Positions 10,424-16,276 of a stretch of 16,276 nt of DNA are shown here, in pieces. A program made the translations under genes and the position numbers. The notes beneath the pieces were generated by a model that ran no database searches, was not told where the DNA came from, and worked only from the letters and a program-made list of their open reading frames with translations. Source of the stretch: a virus. Every line of letters starts with the position of its first letter. Within the stretch, counting starts at the first letter, position 1. The stretch lies in the UHGV virus genome UHGV-0160852; one strand, given 5' to 3'.

Positions 10424-10975
10424 TTATTTCTCCATACACAAAGATTTATTCGCCACGACGCCCGGAGCTGCACACTCGCGGGCGTCACTCTTTTCTGGCT
10501 GACAAAAGACACGGAACAGTAACGTTAAATGTTCCTGCCATTTCGCCATCACCTGATAGCTGTTCTCCTCAATTTGCTCGCGTTCTGCCTGGTCAATTAC
10601 CCCATCAGCTGTAGCTTTACGCAGGTACTGCGAGTGTTTTCCTATCCACTCAATGGACTCCATAAGACGCTGGTTAATATCTGCGTTGTCCACGTCTTCA
10701 ATATCTGCCAACGGAACAAAAACGCCGTTCGAGTGACGCGCTATAGCATTGGCAATATGATTTGACCCACCAGCACGCTGCAGCACCATTGCCCAGCCGA
10801 GAGGGAAAATCTGATCACCATCGGCACGTAAACGGTTAAACAATGCGTTTTCAGTAACGCCCAGCCACTCCGCAGCTTCCACGTAACCACCGTCCAAATC
10901 AGTGATAGTTTTTTTGATAGCGGCCACCAGCCATGCCGGCTGCTTATCTACTTTCCATTCAGGTTCGATACCCAC
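10424..10975 (-). CDS. cII-position regulatory protein (possible CII/CP76- or YdaT-like), HTH-like segment
   Basis: 183-aa ORF between cro and the replication gene; GTG start at 10975 with AAGGGG 6 nt upstream; segment AAEWLGVTENALFNRL is HTH-like. Family assignment is by position and size only. Confidence 0.6.
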   Translation of the reverse strand: MGIEPEWKVDKQPAWLVAAIKKTITDLDGGYVEAAEWLGVTENALFNRLRADGDQIFPLGWAMVLQRAGGSNHIANAIARHSNGVFVPLADIEDVDNADINQRLMESIEWIGKHSQYLRKATADGVIDQAEREQIEENSYQVMAKWQEHLTLLFRVFCQPEKSDARECAAPGVVANKSLCMEK

Positions 10976-11223: not shown

Positions 11224-11301
11224 TGTACCTCCTGTGTACATATTACACGAAAGCAATGAACCTTCAAGGTACTTGTACCTTTAAGGTACATGCGGTTAAA
11301 T
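11224..11301. promoter_or_regulatory. OR-like operator/promoter region: three 17-bp TGTACC-N5-GGTACA-type operators with divergent PR and PRM
   Basis: Operators TGTACCTCCTGTGTACA (11224-11240), TGAACCTTCAAGGTACT (11257-11273) and perfect TGTACCTTTAAGGTACA (11274-11290). Minus-strand PR: -35 TTGAAG, 16-bp spacer, -10 TAATAT, then the cro SD. Plus-strand PRM: -35 TTGTAC (11273-11278), 17-bp spacer, -10 TTAAAT (11296-11301), implying a leaderless cI mRNA starting at the ATG at 11308. Confidence 0.7.
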
Positions 11302-11307
11302 TTCAAT

Positions 11308-11982
11308 ATGAAAACAATCCAGGAAATCAGGCGGTTAAACGCCAGAAAATTGCGCGATGGTGTAGGCGGGAATATCTTCTTCGCCAACATGATTGATCGT
11401 GAGCCGACTCAAACAAGCCGGTTCATGGGTGACGGTGCGACAAAGAACATTGGTGATGCTATGGCAAGACACATTGAAAAATGTTTCGACTTGCCAACTG
11501 GTTGGTTAGATCAGGAGCACCAAACTACCAATGTAGCTAAAACTCCTGACGTCTCTGATACAAGCAGGGACATCACCATGGTTCCGGTAATATCCTGGGT
11601 ACAAGCAGGAGCATGGACAGAAGCTGGCTATGCTGAGGTTGATTTGAATAGTACAGAAAACTATCCCTGTCCTGTCCCCTGTGGGCCAATGACATATATT
11701 CTTCGTGTTATTGGTGATTCAATGATCGATGAATACAGGCCTGGAGATATGATTTTTGTTGATCCAGAGATAGCTGCAGTACACGGAGATGATGTCATTG
11801 CATTGATGCATGATTCTGGTGAGACGACATTTAAGCGGCTTATTGAGGATGCAGGACAACGTTACCTTAAAGCTCTGAACTCGAACTGGCCAGAGCCGTA
11901 CATTAAAATTAATGGCAATTGTTCAATTATTGGTACTGTGATTTTTTCTGGTAAACCCAGGCGGTATAGAACAAAAATTTGA
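11308..11982 (+). CDS. cI: CI-like prophage repressor with C-terminal S24 (LexA-like) autopeptidase domain
   Basis: C-terminal RVIGDSMIDEYRPGDMIFVDP (catalytic Ser in GDSM) and ETTFKRL (Lys) are the S24 dyad; divergent from cro across operators. Start at 11308 preferred (leaderless from PRM); track start at 11290 lies inside an operator. Confidence 0.9.
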   Translation: MKTIQEIRRLNARKLRDGVGGNIFFANMIDREPTQTSRFMGDGATKNIGDAMARHIEKCFDLPTGWLDQEHQTTNVAKTPDVSDTSRDITMVPVISWVQAGAWTEAGYAEVDLNSTENYPCPVPCGPMTYILRVIGDSMIDEYRPGDMIFVDPEIAAVHGDDVIALMHDSGETTFKRLIEDAGQRYLKALNSNWPEPYIKINGNCSIIGTVIFSGKPRRYRTKI

Positions 11983-11996
11983 CCGTTAACAACAGA

Positions 11997-12019
11997 CCTG
12001 CTTCGGCAGGTTTTTTTAT
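11997..12019 (+). terminator. rho-independent terminator after the repressor gene
   Basis: Stem ACCTGC / GCAGGT with TTCG tetraloop followed by TTTTTTT, 15 bp after the cI stop. Confidence 0.8.
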
Positions 12020-12022
12020 ACT

Positions 12023-12056
12023 TGACAATGTACCCATTCGGTACATAATGTACCTA
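12023..12056 (+). promoter_or_regulatory. PL-like early promoter with OL operator: -35 TTGACA, 16-bp spacer, -10 CATAAT, overlapped by TGTACCCATTCGGTACA
   Basis: Near-consensus sigma70 hexamers at 12023-12028 and 12045-12050; the 17-bp palindrome at 12030-12046 has the same TGTACC-N5-GGTACA architecture as the OR sites, plus an extra GTACC half-site at 12051-12055. Confidence 0.65.
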
Positions 12057-12117
12057 AAAGAAACAGCGGACAGGTAGGATGATTCGCTAAGCAACATACC
12101 AGTAGAGGTATCTCAAG

Positions 12118-12207
12118 ATGGACAAAGCATACGAAGAATATTTTGAAGGTCTGGCGGAAGGTGAAGAAGCTCTGAGCTATGCCGAATTCGTCGAAGCACT
12201 TTCCTAA
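12118..12207 (+). CDS. possible 29-aa acidic peptide (MDKAYEEYFEGLAEGEEALSYAEFVEALS)
   Basis: First ATG after the predicted PL start site, with AGAGGT about 9 nt upstream; below the ORF-track length cutoff. No family support. Confidence 0.2.
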   Translation: MDKAYEEYFEGLAEGEEALSYAEFVEALS

Positions 12208-12921
12208 ACATGGCGAAAGCCGACAGCGTTGAAGGCGATTTTCTCGGTTTGCGCGCTAAACAATAGCGGGGGTGAAATCGGGGCGGAGAAGCAGAATCCG
12301 CGATGTCGGGACTTGATACTTCCGGCCATACCAACAAGCCGAATGATCGCGTAACGATCCTTTGCATCTGCCCCGGCGAGGTGGCGCCGCCGGACCGGGG
12401 TAGATGAATCGTAAACAACATGAAAGCGCATTCCATCTTCCATCGGTCGTGGGGATCGGTTTGTAACTGAAGGAGTGCGCTTCCAGTTGTGAACGGCAAT
12501 ATTCACAACCGTTGTATGGCACATGCAGCGTTAGCAGCCCGGATGGTTCCCTTGAAGTTCCATGCGCTATCCGGACAACTGGAATGTGCAAGCCAAGTGT
12601 TTCAGGCACGACGTGCGCCCCACCAGCGCGGCGAAATGGTGTGACGCCCGGGAAGAGTCCGGGACACAACAGGTAAGAGCACTCCCGCCACACGATGCTG
12701 AAACCCAAGCGCCATGTGGATGCGCCGAAAAGCTACGACGGGGCGTTGGTAGAAGATCGGAGTGCTCTTTCCGTTGTGGTAATTGCGGCTATGCGCACGT
12801 GACGAGCTAACCCGTTCATGGAATGCGTTTCCGGGCAGTGTGACGTCGTCGGTTATTGGCTAAACCCGGCAGGTGGAGGCACCACCGCCACAACTTAGTT
12901 AACTGTGCTGTGTGTAGTCTT

Positions 12922-12991
12922 GGCGGTTATCCAGTTTTCCACTATCCAAAGGAGGAAGAGGATAACGTTCTGATGGATAACCGCCCTTTTT
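12922..12991 (+). terminator. long hairpin (11-bp stem GGCGGTTATCC / GGATAACCGCC) followed by CTTTTT; possible attenuator
   Basis: Perfect 11-bp inverted repeat with a ~42-nt loop; the loop holds a second copy of GGATAACG that could pair with the 5' arm instead, giving mutually exclusive structures. Confidence 0.35.
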
Positions 12992-13096
12992 ACACAATAC
13001 AAAAGAGCATCACCGGGCGACGGGCTCATTACCCAATCCACCCGGGCGGCATCCAAACCGCAGGTGCTCTTCTGTGTTGTGTACGGAGAAATTCCC

Positions 13097-13115
13097 GGCG
13101 GTGGCAGCCGCCTTT
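13097..13115 (+). terminator. short GC hairpin (GGCGG-TG / GGCA tetraloop) followed by TTT, about 15 nt upstream of the first early gene
   Basis: 6-bp G/C stem with only three trailing T; a weak terminator or structural element overlapping the approach to the gene's ribosome-binding site. Confidence 0.3.
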
Positions 13116-13130
13116 CGAGAGGGTAAAACC

Positions 13131-13502
13131 ATGAGTAATGATCGCATGACAGTCGTGCCCGATTTCCTGGGTGAACTGGACGCCGGCGTATTCATGAACA
13201 AGATTGCGGCGGCTCTTAATACCACCGCGCTCGGCGTTCTGAACAATGGCAACAAAGGCAAGGTTGTCCTCACCTTTGATTTTGAGCGTATGGGCAACTC
13301 TGTTGAAGAGAAGCGCGTCAAGATCAAGCACAAGCTGAACTACAGCACCCCAACTCCCCGCGGCAAAGCGTCGGAAGAGGACACCACCGAAACACCAATG
13401 TGGGTTAACAAAGGCGGCAAGCTCACAATCCTGCAAGAGGATCAGGGGCAACTCTTCGGTATCACCGGCGCGGTGGACGGAAAGCTTAAAGCGGCTCAGT
13501 GA
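13131..13502 (+). CDS. hypothetical early protein (123 aa), first gene of the PL operon
   Basis: ATG at 13131 with GAGAGGG 7 nt upstream; protein-like composition. Size and position resemble yfdP of the E. coli CPS-53 prophage, from memory only. Confidence 0.75.
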   Translation: MSNDRMTVVPDFLGELDAGVFMNKIAAALNTTALGVLNNGNKGKVVLTFDFERMGNSVEEKRVKIKHKLNYSTPTPRGKASEEDTTETPMWVNKGGKLTILQEDQGQLFGITGAVDGKLKAAQ

Positions 13503-13558
13503 ACCGCACGTACAAATTCACTGATACCACTTCGCTAATCAGTTAATAAGGAATTTTT

Positions 13559-14386
13559 ATGTCTCAGTTAGACAGCGGTACTTTTCAGCAGGTTAAAGAC
13601 CTCGTGCTTTCCGGGTATCACCTGAACGATATCCACGGCCTGGCCTGTCCAACCGCCCTGCTACCGCAGAATACCAACGTTGAAAGCCTGGAGCGTTTTG
13701 CTCTTGAGCGTTTCCGTTTCCGCGGTGCCATGGACACGACCAGCATTGATGATTTCGTTCGCTATTCTGTCGCTTATGCCCAGGAAGAAGAAAAAGCACG
13801 TTGCTTTATTGATGCCGATAACATGCTGGCTCGTTCTATCTTCAATATCGGCACGTTGGACAACCCAGGCCACGCTGATAACGTCGCCTCGATCAAGCTT
13901 AAGAAGACAGCGCCCTTCCGCGCGTTACTGGCGATCAACGGCGATCACCTTAATCAGAAGCAAATCGCCGAATGGCTCGAAGACTGGAGTGACTATCTCA
14001 CTGCGTTCGATTCCGACGGACAGACAATGAAAATTGCACAGGCAGCGCAGGCGGTTCGCCGTGTCACTATCCAGCAAACTAATGCCGCCGATCATGAAGA
14101 CGGTGATTTCAGCGGCAAAAAATCGCTGATGCAAAGTATCGAAGCCAGCAGTAAAGATGTTATGCCGGTCGCGTTTGAGTTTAAGTGTGTACCCTATGAA
14201 GGCCTGGGCGAACGTCGTTTCAGTCTTCGCAATAGCCTGCTCAAAAGTAGCGATCCGGTATTCGTCCTGCGTATCGTCCAGCTGGAAGCCCTGGAAGAAG
14301 CGATCGCCAATGAGTTCCGTGATCTGCTGGTTGGCAAGTTCGACGGCAAGCCGGTAGAAACCTTTATCGGCAACTTCAAGGCCTGA
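13559..14386 (+). CDS. YfdQ-like (DUF2303-type) prophage protein
   Basis: 275-aa ORF with AAGGAA about 7 nt upstream; sits immediately before an HD-domain gene, matching the yfdQ-yfdR order and sizes I recall for the CPS-53 prophage. Not verifiable without a search. Confidence 0.8.
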   Translation: MSQLDSGTFQQVKDLVLSGYHLNDIHGLACPTALLPQNTNVESLERFALERFRFRGAMDTTSIDDFVRYSVAYAQEEEKARCFIDADNMLARSIFNIGTLDNPGHADNVASIKLKKTAPFRALLAINGDHLNQKQIAEWLEDWSDYLTAFDSDGQTMKIAQAAQAVRRVTIQQTNAADHEDGDFSGKKSLMQSIEASSKDVMPVAFEFKCVPYEGLGERRFSLRNSLLKSSDPVFVLRIVQLEALEEAIANEFRDLLVGKFDGKPVETFIGNFKA

Positions 14387-14515
14387 TTGCTCTCCATTAA
14401 ATCCCCGTCGTTGAGGGGATTTATTAAAGCGTAATCCTGTAATTAATCGCCACCTGGCGAGGGATTCCTACACCCAAAAAACAGCGCTGTGCAGGCGTAA
14501 AGTATGGAGAAAATA

Positions 14516-15043
14516 ATGAGCTTTATTCAAACCTTTTCAGGCAAACATTTTAACTATCTCGACATCCAGCAAGACGCCATCGAGATCGAAGATATTGCTA
14601 ATGCACTCTCGAACATCTGCCGCTTTGCCGGTCACCTGCCTGAGTTCTATAGCGTCGGCCAGCACAGCGTTTTAACAAGCCAACTGGTACCTCAAGAATT
14701 TGCGCTTGAAGCGCTGCTGCATGACGCCGCCGAGGCATATTTGCAGGATATCCCTGCCCCATTAAAACGCCTTCTTCCTGACTACCGCGCAATTGAAGAT
14801 CAGGTTGATGCAGCTATTCGCCAAAAATTCGGCCTGCCGGCTGTGCAGCACCCGACCGTTAAATATGCCGACCTGGTGATGCTGGCCAGCGAACGTCGCG
14901 ACTTTGAGATCGACGACGGCACCCACTGGCCGATGCTCGACGGCGTCATTCCTACTGACCAGTTTGTGATTAACCCCGTCCGCCCGGGCCAGTCTTACGG
15001 CATGTTCATGAACCGCTTTAACCAACTGATGGAGCGGCGCTAA
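14516..15043 (+). CDS. HD-domain phosphohydrolase, YfdR-like 5'-deoxynucleotidase
   Basis: HD-domain metal-binding pattern (CRFAGH...GQHS...LLHDAAEAY...D) in a 175-aa protein beginning MSFIQTFSGKHF; start at the ATG at 14516 with GGAG 6 nt upstream (track start 14504). Confidence 0.88.
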   Translation: MSFIQTFSGKHFNYLDIQQDAIEIEDIANALSNICRFAGHLPEFYSVGQHSVLTSQLVPQEFALEALLHDAAEAYLQDIPAPLKRLLPDYRAIEDQVDAAIRQKFGLPAVQHPTVKYADLVMLASERRDFEIDDGTHWPMLDGVIPTDQFVINPVRPGQSYGMFMNRFNQLMERR

Positions 15044-15243
15044 TGGCACATGTGAAAGTGAAAGAATTAGTTGCTGCAGCATACGCTACAGCACCTGACC
15101 TACCACCAGCAGCAGCACAATTAATGCAAGACATAGCGTCAAGGCTGGATGTGACCTTTGTCGCCCTTACAGAGGCAATGGACCAGAACACCGCTATGGC
15201 CGCGATGATAGCGAACCTGAGCGAGGAAAACAGAAATGGCTAA
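15043..15243 (+). CDS. small hypothetical protein (66 aa), translationally coupled on both sides
   Basis: TAATG overlap with the HD gene stop and an 8-bp overlap with the next gene start; Ala-rich, no family. Confidence 0.55.
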   Translation: MAHVKVKELVAAAYATAPDLPPAAAQLMQDIASRLDVTFVALTEAMDQNTAMAAMIANLSEENRNG

Positions 15244-16021
15244 AAACTCGATCGATGCTTATGGCGCCAGCGGCAAGACAAACGTTCTGATGTTCGAGCC
15301 GGAAAATCTGCATATTGTCACTGACAAGGCCCACCCGCTTTACGATGAGCGAGTCAATCTGCCGATCGATGAAGGGATGGTGTTGAATATCAAAGAGCTG
15401 GGTGTTCTTGAGCCGATTATTGTCTGGAAAGACCCTGAAAAGGGGCTCACCTGTGTGGTTGTCGGTCGTCAGCGCGTTAAACATACGCTGGAAGCCAATA
15501 AGCTCCTGCTGAAAGAAGGCAAAACACCGCTGCTTGTTCCTGGAGTCGTTAAGCGTGGTTCGGCAAACCAAATGGCCAAATATATGGTCAGCGAAAACGA
15601 AATCCGCCGACCTGATACGCCATTAGGTCGAGCTAAGAAAATGTCAGACGCGCTGGATCGTGGTCATGACGAGGACGACCTTGCGGTGTTGTTTGGCTGT
15701 AGCGTTCAGACTGTCCGTGCAACGCTGTCACTACTCGATGCTACCCAGGCTGTTAGGGAGGCGGTAGAGTCTGGCACAGTTACCGTTACCCAGGCGCGTC
15801 AGCTTGGCGCGCTACCACCTGAAGAGCAGCGGGCAAAAGTGGCAGAAATCGAGCTGGCGACAGCTGGAACCAAAGGCCATGAAAAATCCCGTCGGCAGCG
15901 TCAGGTTCTCGGTGAGGCAAAACCGCGCATCAAATCACGTAAGGAAATCACAAAAGCCCTCGAAGATGCCAGCGGCGAATATGCCGAGGCTCTGCTCTGG
16001 GTACTTGGGGAGGCGAAATGA
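15236..16021 (+). CDS. ParB-like N-terminal (ParB/Srx nuclease-fold) domain protein
   Basis: LGVLEPIIVWKDPEKGLTCVVVGRQRVKHTL resembles the ParB box region (QPI-V-R ... GERR-RA), followed by a helical, basic C-terminal half. Confidence 0.75.
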   Translation: MAKNSIDAYGASGKTNVLMFEPENLHIVTDKAHPLYDERVNLPIDEGMVLNIKELGVLEPIIVWKDPEKGLTCVVVGRQRVKHTLEANKLLLKEGKTPLLVPGVVKRGSANQMAKYMVSENEIRRPDTPLGRAKKMSDALDRGHDEDDLAVLFGCSVQTVRATLSLLDATQAVREAVESGTVTVTQARQLGALPPEEQRAKVAEIELATAGTKGHEKSRRQRQVLGEAKPRIKSRKEITKALEDASGEYAEALLWVLGEAK

Positions 16022-16152
16022 ACTTTGAACCTGAAAATTACAGCCGGCGCGCCCTTCTCTGGTTTGCTGCACTGGTCAGTGTTGTCGGGTGGGTTGTAGT
16101 AGTCGCTGTAATCTTGGGCGTATGCATGATGATCGAATGGGTGACGGCATGA
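16018..16152 (+). CDS. possible 44-aa single-pass membrane peptide (MNFEPENYSRRALLWFAALVSVVGWVVVVAVILGVCMMIEWVTA)
   Basis: ATGA overlap with the ParB-like gene stop and a hydrophobic helix of about 22 residues; below the track length cutoff. Another ATGA-coupled tiny ORF starts at 16149. Confidence 0.4.
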   Translation: MNFEPENYSRRALLWFAALVSVVGWVVVVAVILGVCMMIEWVTA

Positions 16153-16276
16153 ACATCGAAACAGTAAACGAGCTCATTCAGTCGCTGGAGTCGGCGGGCC
16201 CATAAAGCAGCGGACCGCTCACAAAATCATAAATGTGTTTCATACCCGACTCACGAACAGCAACCCCCAGGAACAA

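Follow-up and report, generated by a model that had tools for sequence, protein, structure and literature searches.

A DicF-like terminator module and a conserved structured RNA at the entrance to the early operon of a Klebsiella prophage

The stretch of DNA analysed here (16,276 nucleotides (nt) of virus genome UHGV-0160852; hereafter the window) came from an ST64B/CPS-53-like temperate Klebsiella prophage, of which it comprised the immunity and early-left region. This report concerns the leader of its early operon, in particular a terminator hairpin at 12922-12991, which forms the 3′-end of a DicF-like small RNA module, and the structured RNA behind it (module 2), which together probably divide early transcription between a small RNA and an early mRNA. 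The leader was framed by the following genes and signals:

10424-10975, minus strand: cII-like gene.
11290-11982, plus strand: cI-like S24 repressor gene.
11994-12013: bidirectional terminator, directly downstream of the cI-like gene.
12022-12049 (12022-12054 with operators), plus strand: PL-like early promoter, TTGACA-16-CATAAT, matching the consensus at 11 of 12 positions.
12118-12207, plus strand: 29-codon open reading frame (ORF) related to ydfB; the DNA of 12118-12178 is 84% identical to Qin ydfB (L128, 1684-1744).
13131-13502, plus strand: first early gene, yfdP/sb37-like, of unknown function (PHROG 204, E = 1e-41).
13559-14386: yfdQ/DUF2303 gene, followed by nucleotidase and ParB-like genes.

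This gene layout was that of the lambda cI-to-PL arrangement, found also in Qin (dicA, then ydfABC-dicF-dicB). Operator half-sites overlapped the PL-like promoter as ATGTACC-N5-GGTACAT and a third ATGTACC, lying between and after the -35 and -10 hexamers, and these three ATGTACC/GGTACAT half-sites are presumably operators of the cI-like repressor. On the plus strand, a scan of 12050-13130 revealed no second sigma-70-like promoter, leaving 12022-12049 as the sole strong one, and a terminator scan of 13100-16276 revealed no further terminator. Pfam and PHROG searches left about 1.1 kb after the PL-like promoter without any matching ORF. The closest phage was Klebsiella phage Kp4866-6 (94% identity). 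Early genes of ST64B, phiNP, Flotzy, and E. coli prophages were approximately 79-81% identical to those of the window and likewise lay behind an unannotated gap after cI; the yfdP-like gene held the same position in ST64B, phiNP, and E. coli prophages, while the K-12 cryptic prophage CPS-53 was without this leader. Within the gap, these RNA elements were predicted, all on the plus strand:

12413-12434 with 12472-12491: S0 helix, a weak match to model R2 (14.7 bits).
12664-12685 with 12759-12781: S1 helix, duplex of -31.8 kcal/mol.
12774-12897: D element, cloverleaf-like, closed by GUUGUGGU/GCCACAAC and ending in the hairpin GGUGG-AGGCA-CCACC (RNAalifold consensus).
12898-12991: DicF-like small RNA module (model R1), consisting of the single-stranded GCUGUGUGUAGUCUU, the hairpin 12922-12985, and C plus five U residues.
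12991-13083: module 2, a three-way junction (RNAalifold, covariation, model R2).
12991-13011 with 13063-13083, extended by 12986-12989 with 13085-13088: P1 helix of module 2, also S2.
13013-13017 with 13041-13045: P2 helix of module 2.
13021-13034 (3-bp hairpin 13022-13034): near-invariant hairpin CGGG-CUCAUUA-CCC of module 2, aligned with E. coli metZ.
13046-13049 with 13058-13061: P3 helix of module 2, variable.
13097-13112: hairpin HP3, GGCGG-UGGCAG-CCGCC, about 7 nt ahead of the Shine-Dalgarno sequence GAGAGGG (13117-13123) of the ATG at 13131.

The arms GGCGGTTATCC (12922-12932) and GGATAACCGCC (12975-12985), pointed out in a preliminary description of this DNA together with the CTTTTT behind them, were present as perfect complements followed by C and TTTTT (12986-12991). 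This hairpin (hairpin 1) folded at -28.8 kcal/mol, against a mean of -16.4 ± 3.1 kcal/mol for shuffled sequences (z = -4.0), and none of 200 shuffles was as good, an outcome in favour of this part of the description, which had named such shuffled controls as a point of refutation. The whole of 12900-13140 folded at -93.9 kcal/mol (z = -4.6). A 22-nt motif taken from the conserved segment retrieved 120 IMG/VR loci with 109 distinct leaders. Among 76 distinct homologous upstream sequences, 70 carried a hairpin of -10 kcal/mol or lower that ended 1-2 nt before a run of five to seven T residues, and 43 different hairpin sequences were represented. The types included GGCGGUACCAG..., GCGGCAUC..., UGCCCAUC..., and CUGGCGGCC..., as well as long forms of 63-65 nt; the hairpin of the window was of the long type, and its exact sequence occurred also in Klebsiella spallanzanii SB6411. 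Since the structure was kept while the sequence changed, hairpin 1 is taken as a real terminator. Intrinsic terminators have a GC-rich stable hairpin with a U-tract of about five or more directly behind it, and this arrangement was found at 12922-12991, with five U residues. Hairpin 1 (12922-12985 plus U5) is thus an intrinsic (Rho-independent) terminator, the efficiency of which we infer. Because it separates the first early gene from the only good promoter, entry into the early operon needs read-through, and the terminator region is a gate in this sense. The "regulated gate" of the preliminary description holds to this extent; a conserved switch, a second terminator, and a leader peptide were not found, as detailed below.

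According to that description, the 5′ arm of hairpin 1 could pair alternatively with an internal segment, as in attenuators and riboswitches. A riboswitch or attenuator of this kind, in which a ligand or translation of a short ORF makes the 5′ arm choose between GGAUAAC and the 3′ arm and a second terminator serves as backup, has a leader terminator with a possible competing helix in common with known systems. The internal complement did exist, two bases from where it had been placed:

12926-12966, plus strand: lineage-specific competing pairing of GUUAUCC (12926-12932) with GGAUAAC (12960-12966), coaxial with the inner helix UUUUCC/GGAAGA.

This 7-bp pairing was rarer than chance, a 7-nt complement of the 5′ arm occurring within the loop in only 0.9% of loop shuffles (p ~0.009), and when growing transcripts were folded it was the structure of lowest energy (-16.6 kcal/mol) up to about 12980, where the 3′ arm emerges. 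In the completed RNA at equilibrium, however, the terminator was favoured by about 12 kcal/mol, its pairs having a probability of 0.99 against less than 1e-7 for the alternative, and the alternative leaves GGCG unpaired at the foot of the 5′ arm, which gives the 3′ arm a toehold. Moreover, the competing pairing was confined to the Klebsiella lineage of the window and was missing from all others, in which the terminator was kept; the other long-hairpin lineages had AGAUAAUGUUCU at the competing site, with which their GGUACC arm was unable to pair. Unlike in attenuators and riboswitches, the competing helix was weak, was restricted to one lineage, and came without a conserved aptamer or leader peptide. 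At Rfam gathering thresholds nothing was detected in the whole window, and at E ≤ 10 the region 11900-13200 gave a weak DicF match and no tRNA, riboswitch, or leader family. The competing pairing is therefore predicted to be a co-transcriptional intermediate only, peculiar to this lineage. The purine-rich AAAGGAGGAAGAGG, also part of the description, was present but paired: it makes up the 3′ side of the inner helix within hairpin 1 and is not a free ribosome binding site.

The remaining parts of such a switch fared similarly. The GC hairpin with TTT at 13097-13115, regarded in the preliminary description as a second terminator-like hairpin, corresponded to HP3. It was present in 46 of 46 distinct homologous tails, with stems that covaried (GGCGG/CCGCC, AGCGG/CCGCU, CGACC/GGUCG, GGCGA/UCGCC, and GGCUG/CAGCC) and loops mostly containing GGCA, UGCA, or GUGCAG. 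Its U-run was UUU in the window, and UAAC, AUAAC, or CUAAC stood in its place in the homologues; by itself, HP3 was unremarkable against shuffles (z = -0.63). HP3 is thus a conserved hairpin but not a terminator, because the following U-run is unconserved. The short ORF MDNRPFYT... (53 codons, 12973-13134), with its ATGA overlap at 13131-13134, was also present, but it was rejected as a gene. Its ATG lay within the 3′ arm of hairpin 1 and occurred in this lineage only; among the homologues, the frame left open ahead of the yfdP start spanned 0 to 101 codons, and module lengths (104-131 nt) differed by non-multiples of 3. The conserved GGUGCYCUUCUSUGUUGUGU was read in two frames, as GALLCCV in some lineages and as QVPFSVVYGE in others, and no leader ORF, this one included, had a Pfam or PHROG match. 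With neither the start and frame of the ORF nor the U-tract of the second hairpin conserved, we regard a riboswitch or attenuator at this locus as extremely improbable.

Relationship of the terminator module to DicF, a textbook prophage small RNA, was observed by several routes. Covariance model R1 was built from 18 homologues, with the window, ST64B, and Qin left out. It matched 12898-12991 of the window with 43.2 bits (E = 1.3e-7), the ST64B copy with 41.8 bits, and authentic E. coli K-12 DicF over its full length with 32.7 bits (E = 3.3e-5; search space 66 kb). Hairpins of many homologues resembled that of DicF (UUUGGCGGUAUCAGUUUUACUCC...GCCGCCCUUUUU), and two relatives, loci L014 and L041, shared GGTTGTCAGGTTGACCATACGC... 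with the region just upstream of Qin dicF. Common ancestry and architecture with authentic DicF were therefore indicated by the R1 match, by the upstream sequence shared with L014 and L041, and by the ydfB homologue, and the module lay, like DicF, in a prophage early operon with genes behind the terminator. As in Qin ydfABC-dicF-dicB (RF00039), the operon is under repressor control and the module is preceded by a long non-coding spacer and, before that, by a ydfB-like ORF; a terminator hairpin of the form UUGGCGG...CCGCCCUUUUU comes after a short single-stranded stretch, operon genes continue behind it, and a 21-bp long-range helix begins directly after the U-tract. The 15-nt single-stranded GCUGUGUGUAGUCUU was conserved ahead of several unrelated hairpin types and, judged by this pattern, behaves as would be expected for a small RNA seed. 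An additional R1 match of 28.3 bits was located in Salmonella phage SPN1S (epsilon15-like; L134, 1892-1955), in the non-coding gap between terminase and portal genes, downstream of a copy of a conserved leader block.

Module 2 showed signs of selection for pairing. In P1, ACACAA...AAGRGCAUC pairs with GGUGCYCUU...UUGUGU; over 71 distinct sequences, 95.8% of the alignment cells were paired, versus no more than 57% when the partners were slid. Seven pairs changed on both sides, examples being G-C to C-G (47:23), G-C to A-U (35:32), and A-U to G-C (64:7), and the covariation score was reached by none of 500 shuffles; the G-U intermediates were valid on the plus strand only. In P2, the compensatory variants CCGGG/CCCGG, CCGGA/UCCGG, and CCGAG/CUCGG were seen in an independent set of loci recruited by the core of the D element. 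Model R2 scored module 2 with 121 bits on the plus strand and 42 bits on the minus strand. Based on these comparisons, 12991-13083 is a conserved structured RNA. The mosaic joint between the small RNA module and module 2 fell exactly at TTTTT|ACACAA. In ST64B of Salmonella SL1344 (NC_004313, 26,866-28,053), these modules were located in the sb38-sb37 spacer. Since different first genes follow module 2 in different phages, and since in the few phages without the small RNA it comes directly after a promoter-like region, module 2 is regarded as a leader element of the operon and not of one gene.

The P1/S2 helix, 20-21 bp long and lengthened by a further 4 bp, was interrupted once or twice; it agrees in length with RNase III substrates (about two turns, at least 20 bp, of nearly continuous helix). 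When the dicF-dicB spacer of Qin was folded, a 21-bp long-range helix was obtained right after the terminator. The 5′-end of DicF is made by RNase E, and its 3′-end is set by termination in the 53-nt form and by RNase III acting on read-through dicBF RNA in the 72-nt form; binding of Hfq is also known for DicF (PMC5069750, PMC9438474). The end of the 72-nt form would fall in the 5′ strand of the Qin helix. By analogy, P1 is most likely an RNase III site, and its cleavage is the most economical reading, because the geometry is the same as in Qin. RNase III processing helices occur in other operon leaders, such as the lambda N leader and the metY(tRNAfMet)-nusA-infB operon. In common with these, P1 brings segments that lie far apart into a helix of about 20 bp, located after a stable RNA and ahead of the first coding gene, and in the metY-nusA-infB operon that stable RNA is itself an initiator tRNA. 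Unlike known RNase III sites, the S helices have conserved ends (CACAAC/GUUGUG) and occur three times in this one leader; cleavage in the window would be expected by analogy.

The reading we consider probable is that a constitutive partial terminator divides early transcription between a small RNA and an early mRNA that undergoes processing, and that it is not a switch sensing a ligand or translation. It starts from features observed directly, namely the terminator and its conservation, the relatedness to DicF, the covarying helices, and the lack of a conserved ORF, and a partial terminator with two outputs is called for because there is no other plus-strand promoter in 12050-13130 and no further plus-strand terminator in 13100-16276. 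Upon loss of the cI-like repressor, transcription would run from the PL-like promoter (12022-12049) through about 870 nt of structured non-coding leader, and the polymerase would meet the strong terminator 12922-12991, where a DicF-family small RNA (about 12900-12991) ends. Terminated transcripts would be trimmed at the 5′-end, just after the tRNA-like D domain, to give the small RNA, the enzyme being RNase E by analogy with DicF. In RNA that reads through, the next 93 nt would fold into the three-way junction, closed by the 21-bp helix that also sequesters the U-tract. RNase III would cut this helix, by analogy with the post-dicF helix of Qin, and thereby part the small RNA from the early mRNA, which would then start shortly before the GGCA-loop hairpin and the ribosome binding site of the yfdP-like gene. 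The small RNA would presumably act in trans on targets of its own.

Several observations weigh against this reading. The Rfam DicF model (RF00039) gave 16.5 bits (E = 1.5) for the window, against a gathering score of 48 bits; the best homologue, L014, reached 30.3 bits over its full length, also below 48, while the K-12 DicF control scored 76.7. The hairpin of the window differs from that of DicF in a 34-nt insertion, and in this long-hairpin variant the inserted purine-rich strand pairs with the pyrimidine-rich DicF-type loop; the seed is also different, GCUGUGUGUAGUCUU versus UUUCUGGUGACGU in DicF. Unlike that of DicF, the duplex of the small RNA with E. coli ftsZ (-60 to +30) was no better than with shuffled targets, 90% of which were as good (2.7% for the DicF control), in a crude test that ignored intramolecular structure and used E. 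coli ftsZ as target, not the Klebsiella leader. The relative L014 has an 11-nt perfect match to ftsZ, AGUUUCUCUCC. Since the complementarity to the ftsZ start is at shuffle level, a DicF-like anti-ftsZ function is doubtful for this copy. Furthermore, the post-dicF helix of Qin is not homologous in sequence to S2, so that RNase III processing is drawn from shape and position. Unlike in Qin, the gene downstream is yfdP-like and not dicB, and the downstream helix encloses a tRNAfMet-like junction that is missing in Qin; a mere processing role does not account for this near-invariant core. From its sequence, we classify the element as a divergent member of a wider DicF-like group that lies outside the curated Rfam family.

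Some of the same observations could be explained if the terminator were a transcriptional gate only, directed against a leaky PL. After induction it would be overridden by processive antitermination, through a put-type RNA or through a protein binding the GGCA hairpins as N binds boxB, and the terminated RNA would be a by-product. A strong terminator between the only promoter and all early genes is what such a gate needs, and the masked DicF-type loop and missing ftsZ complementarity agree with a by-product. A hairpin with GGCA in or beside the loop follows each of the three long S helices (12510-12530, 12872-12886, and 13097-13112), and covarying stems with a kept loop, as in HP3, are the signature of a protein-recognised hairpin; these hairpins look like a recognition motif for some partner. 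To our knowledge, the GGCA loop motif is unlike the known boxB loops. On the other hand, no N-like (Arg-rich) or other antiterminator ORF was recognisable in the leader, and the plus strand of 13100-16276 had no terminators calling for processive antitermination. The 15-nt single-stranded stretch was kept across hairpin types, as a small RNA seed would be. A lambda-type nut site, with a single-stranded boxA (GCUCUUUA) and boxB, was rejected, since the boxA-like GUGCUCUU is helical and covaries (GCGCUU, GCCCUU, and GUUCUC), unlike a NusB/S10 site, and an N-like ORF is missing.

Comparison with HK022 put RNA was similarly divided. Both are cis-acting structured RNAs placed after an early phage promoter and ahead of terminators, in a phage without a recognisable N gene (PMC9378689), and 12489-12535 patchily resembled HK022 putL in sharing GAACGGCAAU and CAUGC.GCG. 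The sequence shared with putL lies on the minus strand of HK022 (L131, about 6330-6250), and in the P1-like phage D6 the sequence CGGCG...CAUGCGUCG is closer still to putL stem I. Unlike HK022 put, however, the leader gave no significant match by BLAST, the put-like stretch was missing from many relatives, and no counterpart of putL G35 was found, a residue at which all tested substitutions abolished anti-pausing activity (PMC9378689). An HK022-type put RNA was thus rejected: the two-stem fold and essential residues A3-G7, U28, G35, G45, and A64 were not matched, U28-like and A64-like residues being present by eye without G35 or the AGACG strand that forms the triplex. On this balance, a purely transcriptional gate overridden by antitermination is unlikely. 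Two further candidates were set aside by inspection, a sigma-54 promoter at TGGCAC/TTGCA, the spacing of which is unfit, and CsrA-type GGA hairpins, the loop being GGCA.

If the partial terminator yields the small RNA and early mRNA as proposed, the conserved interior of module 2 still calls for comment. Of the 14 bases of its core CGGGCUCAUUACCC, 13 matched the anticodon stem-loop of initiator tRNAfMet, and in most relatives, which have CGGGCUCAUAACCC, all 14 did, the loop being CUCAUAA in most homologues with one U-for-A change here. The three hallmark G-C pairs of the tRNAfMet anticodon stem were present, P3 possibly aligns with the T arm, and the core hairpin was found in 20 of the 26 distinct module 2 sequences recruited independently through the D core. 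Neither ARAGORN nor Rfam found a tRNA in the window. P3 of many relatives carries UUGCAG. Literature searches revealed no report of an initiator-tRNA mimic in phage leaders and no relevant ST64B small RNA. Enteric VapC toxins cleave tRNAfMet within this same stem-loop (PMC7180214), and a role of the core as VapC decoy is speculation.

The upstream leader was built from related parts. S0, S1, and S2 (that is, P1) are helices of about 20 bp with the pattern CACAAC-N-AAGMGCAC/GUGCKCUU-N-GUUGUG, and all three were present in both the minimum-energy and the centroid folds of 12400-13135. In about 110 examples of S helices from related loci, T1-like KpV2811, D6, SPN1S, and Qin, the ends were conserved and the central bases covaried; compensatory changes in S1 were observed in KpV2811 and D6. 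The D element folded into an 8-bp closing stem with three arms, and a 5-bp hairpin directly adjoined that stem; pieces of the element, always unannotated, were found in KpV2811, D6, SPN1S, and the Qin spacers. GUUGUGG at the D element can pair with the upstream CACAAC (S1) or with a downstream CCACAAC. Of 100 loci recruited through the D core, 74 had an R1 (DicF-like) match about 100-170 nt downstream and 68 had an R2 match directly after, on the same strand.

Parts of this organization recall tRNA genes, and the leader could be a decayed array of phage tRNA genes and processing stems that persists as mosaic recombination joints without a present RNA function. The D element has the layout of a cloverleaf, the anticodon arm and possibly the T arm of tRNAfMet can be aligned with module 2, and the S-helix motif flanks interchangeable blocks. 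In the sister locus L196, a sequence scoring 39.9 bits with the Rfam tRNA model (gathering 29) follows without a gap on the 3′ strand of an S helix, one unit upstream of the D element of L196 itself, and in D6 a real tRNA-Met lies nearby. Three points argue otherwise: compensatory changes and G-U intermediates valid on the plus strand only indicate ongoing selection for RNA pairing, the tRNAfMet-like hairpin is near-invariant amid variable surroundings, and the order of D element, small RNA, and module 2 is kept in most loci. A functionless array is accordingly judged very unlikely. tRNA-like sequences in the same leader arrays were seen at L196 1116-1241, L214 5871-5996, and L059 5068-5192, with Rfam scores of 32-40 bits and canonical D and T loops, but with about 60 nt inserted at the anticodon; they were not called by ARAGORN.

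The leader appears to be modular, tRNA-derived, and apparently undescribed. Going further is tentative, and we give only a small chance to the idea that module 2 may be an undescribed phage cis-RNA, a D-arm-less initiator-tRNA mimic at the early-operon entrance of many enterobacterial phages, which with the repeated helices, D element, and GGCA hairpins would form a modular tRNA-derived leader family absent from Rfam. Its parts may be a hyper-extended acceptor-like helix (P1), the tRNAfMet anticodon arm, and the T-arm-like P3. The mimic arm could serve as decoy or sensor for readers of the initiator arm, such as VapC toxins, the 30S P site with initiation factor 3, or methionyl-tRNA synthetase, or could act as a translation switch for the first early gene. 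The thrS operator mimics the anticodon arm of tRNAThr in a similar way. Both are copies of an anticodon stem-loop in a 5′ untranslated region near a translation start, but here the mimic would be of initiator tRNA, in a phage operon without an aminoacyl-tRNA synthetase gene. If true, such a leader family would be common to lambdoid, P1-like, epsilon15-like, and T1-like phages. The near-exact copy of the initiator anticodon arm raises the question whether tRNAfMet mimicry helps phages to govern early translation or to withstand toxins that target tRNAfMet.

Whatever the role of the core, the architecture of DicF (structured spacer, small RNA with terminator, long processing helix, and early genes) recurs in ST64B/CPS-53-like prophages of Klebsiella, Salmonella, Citrobacter, and E. 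coli, hundreds of them in all, whereas the curated DicF family is narrow. Several seed sequences occur among the DicF-like loci, and prophage induction may therefore release varied host-directed small RNAs overlooked by current annotation. The seemingly empty gap of about 1.1 kb after cI in such phages is RNA-coding and not junk.

Other RNA features were noted in passing. C4 antisense RNA and IsrK-like RNA, both above the Rfam threshold, lay beside an antirepressor-type regulator at L001 265-453 (ST64B), L041 5333-5521, and L195 4401-4589; by the same Rfam search, neither was in the window. On the minus strand, 11985-12049, spanning the bidirectional terminator after cI, gave a sub-threshold Rfam match to the Salmonella small RNA STnc370 (31.2 bits, threshold 54). 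The spacer between yfdQ and the nucleotidase gene (14398-14470) contained a hairpin AAAUCCCC/GGGGAUUU and the motif UCGCC-N4-GGCGAGGGAUUC, which was also present upstream of the equivalent gene in L011, L046, and L064.

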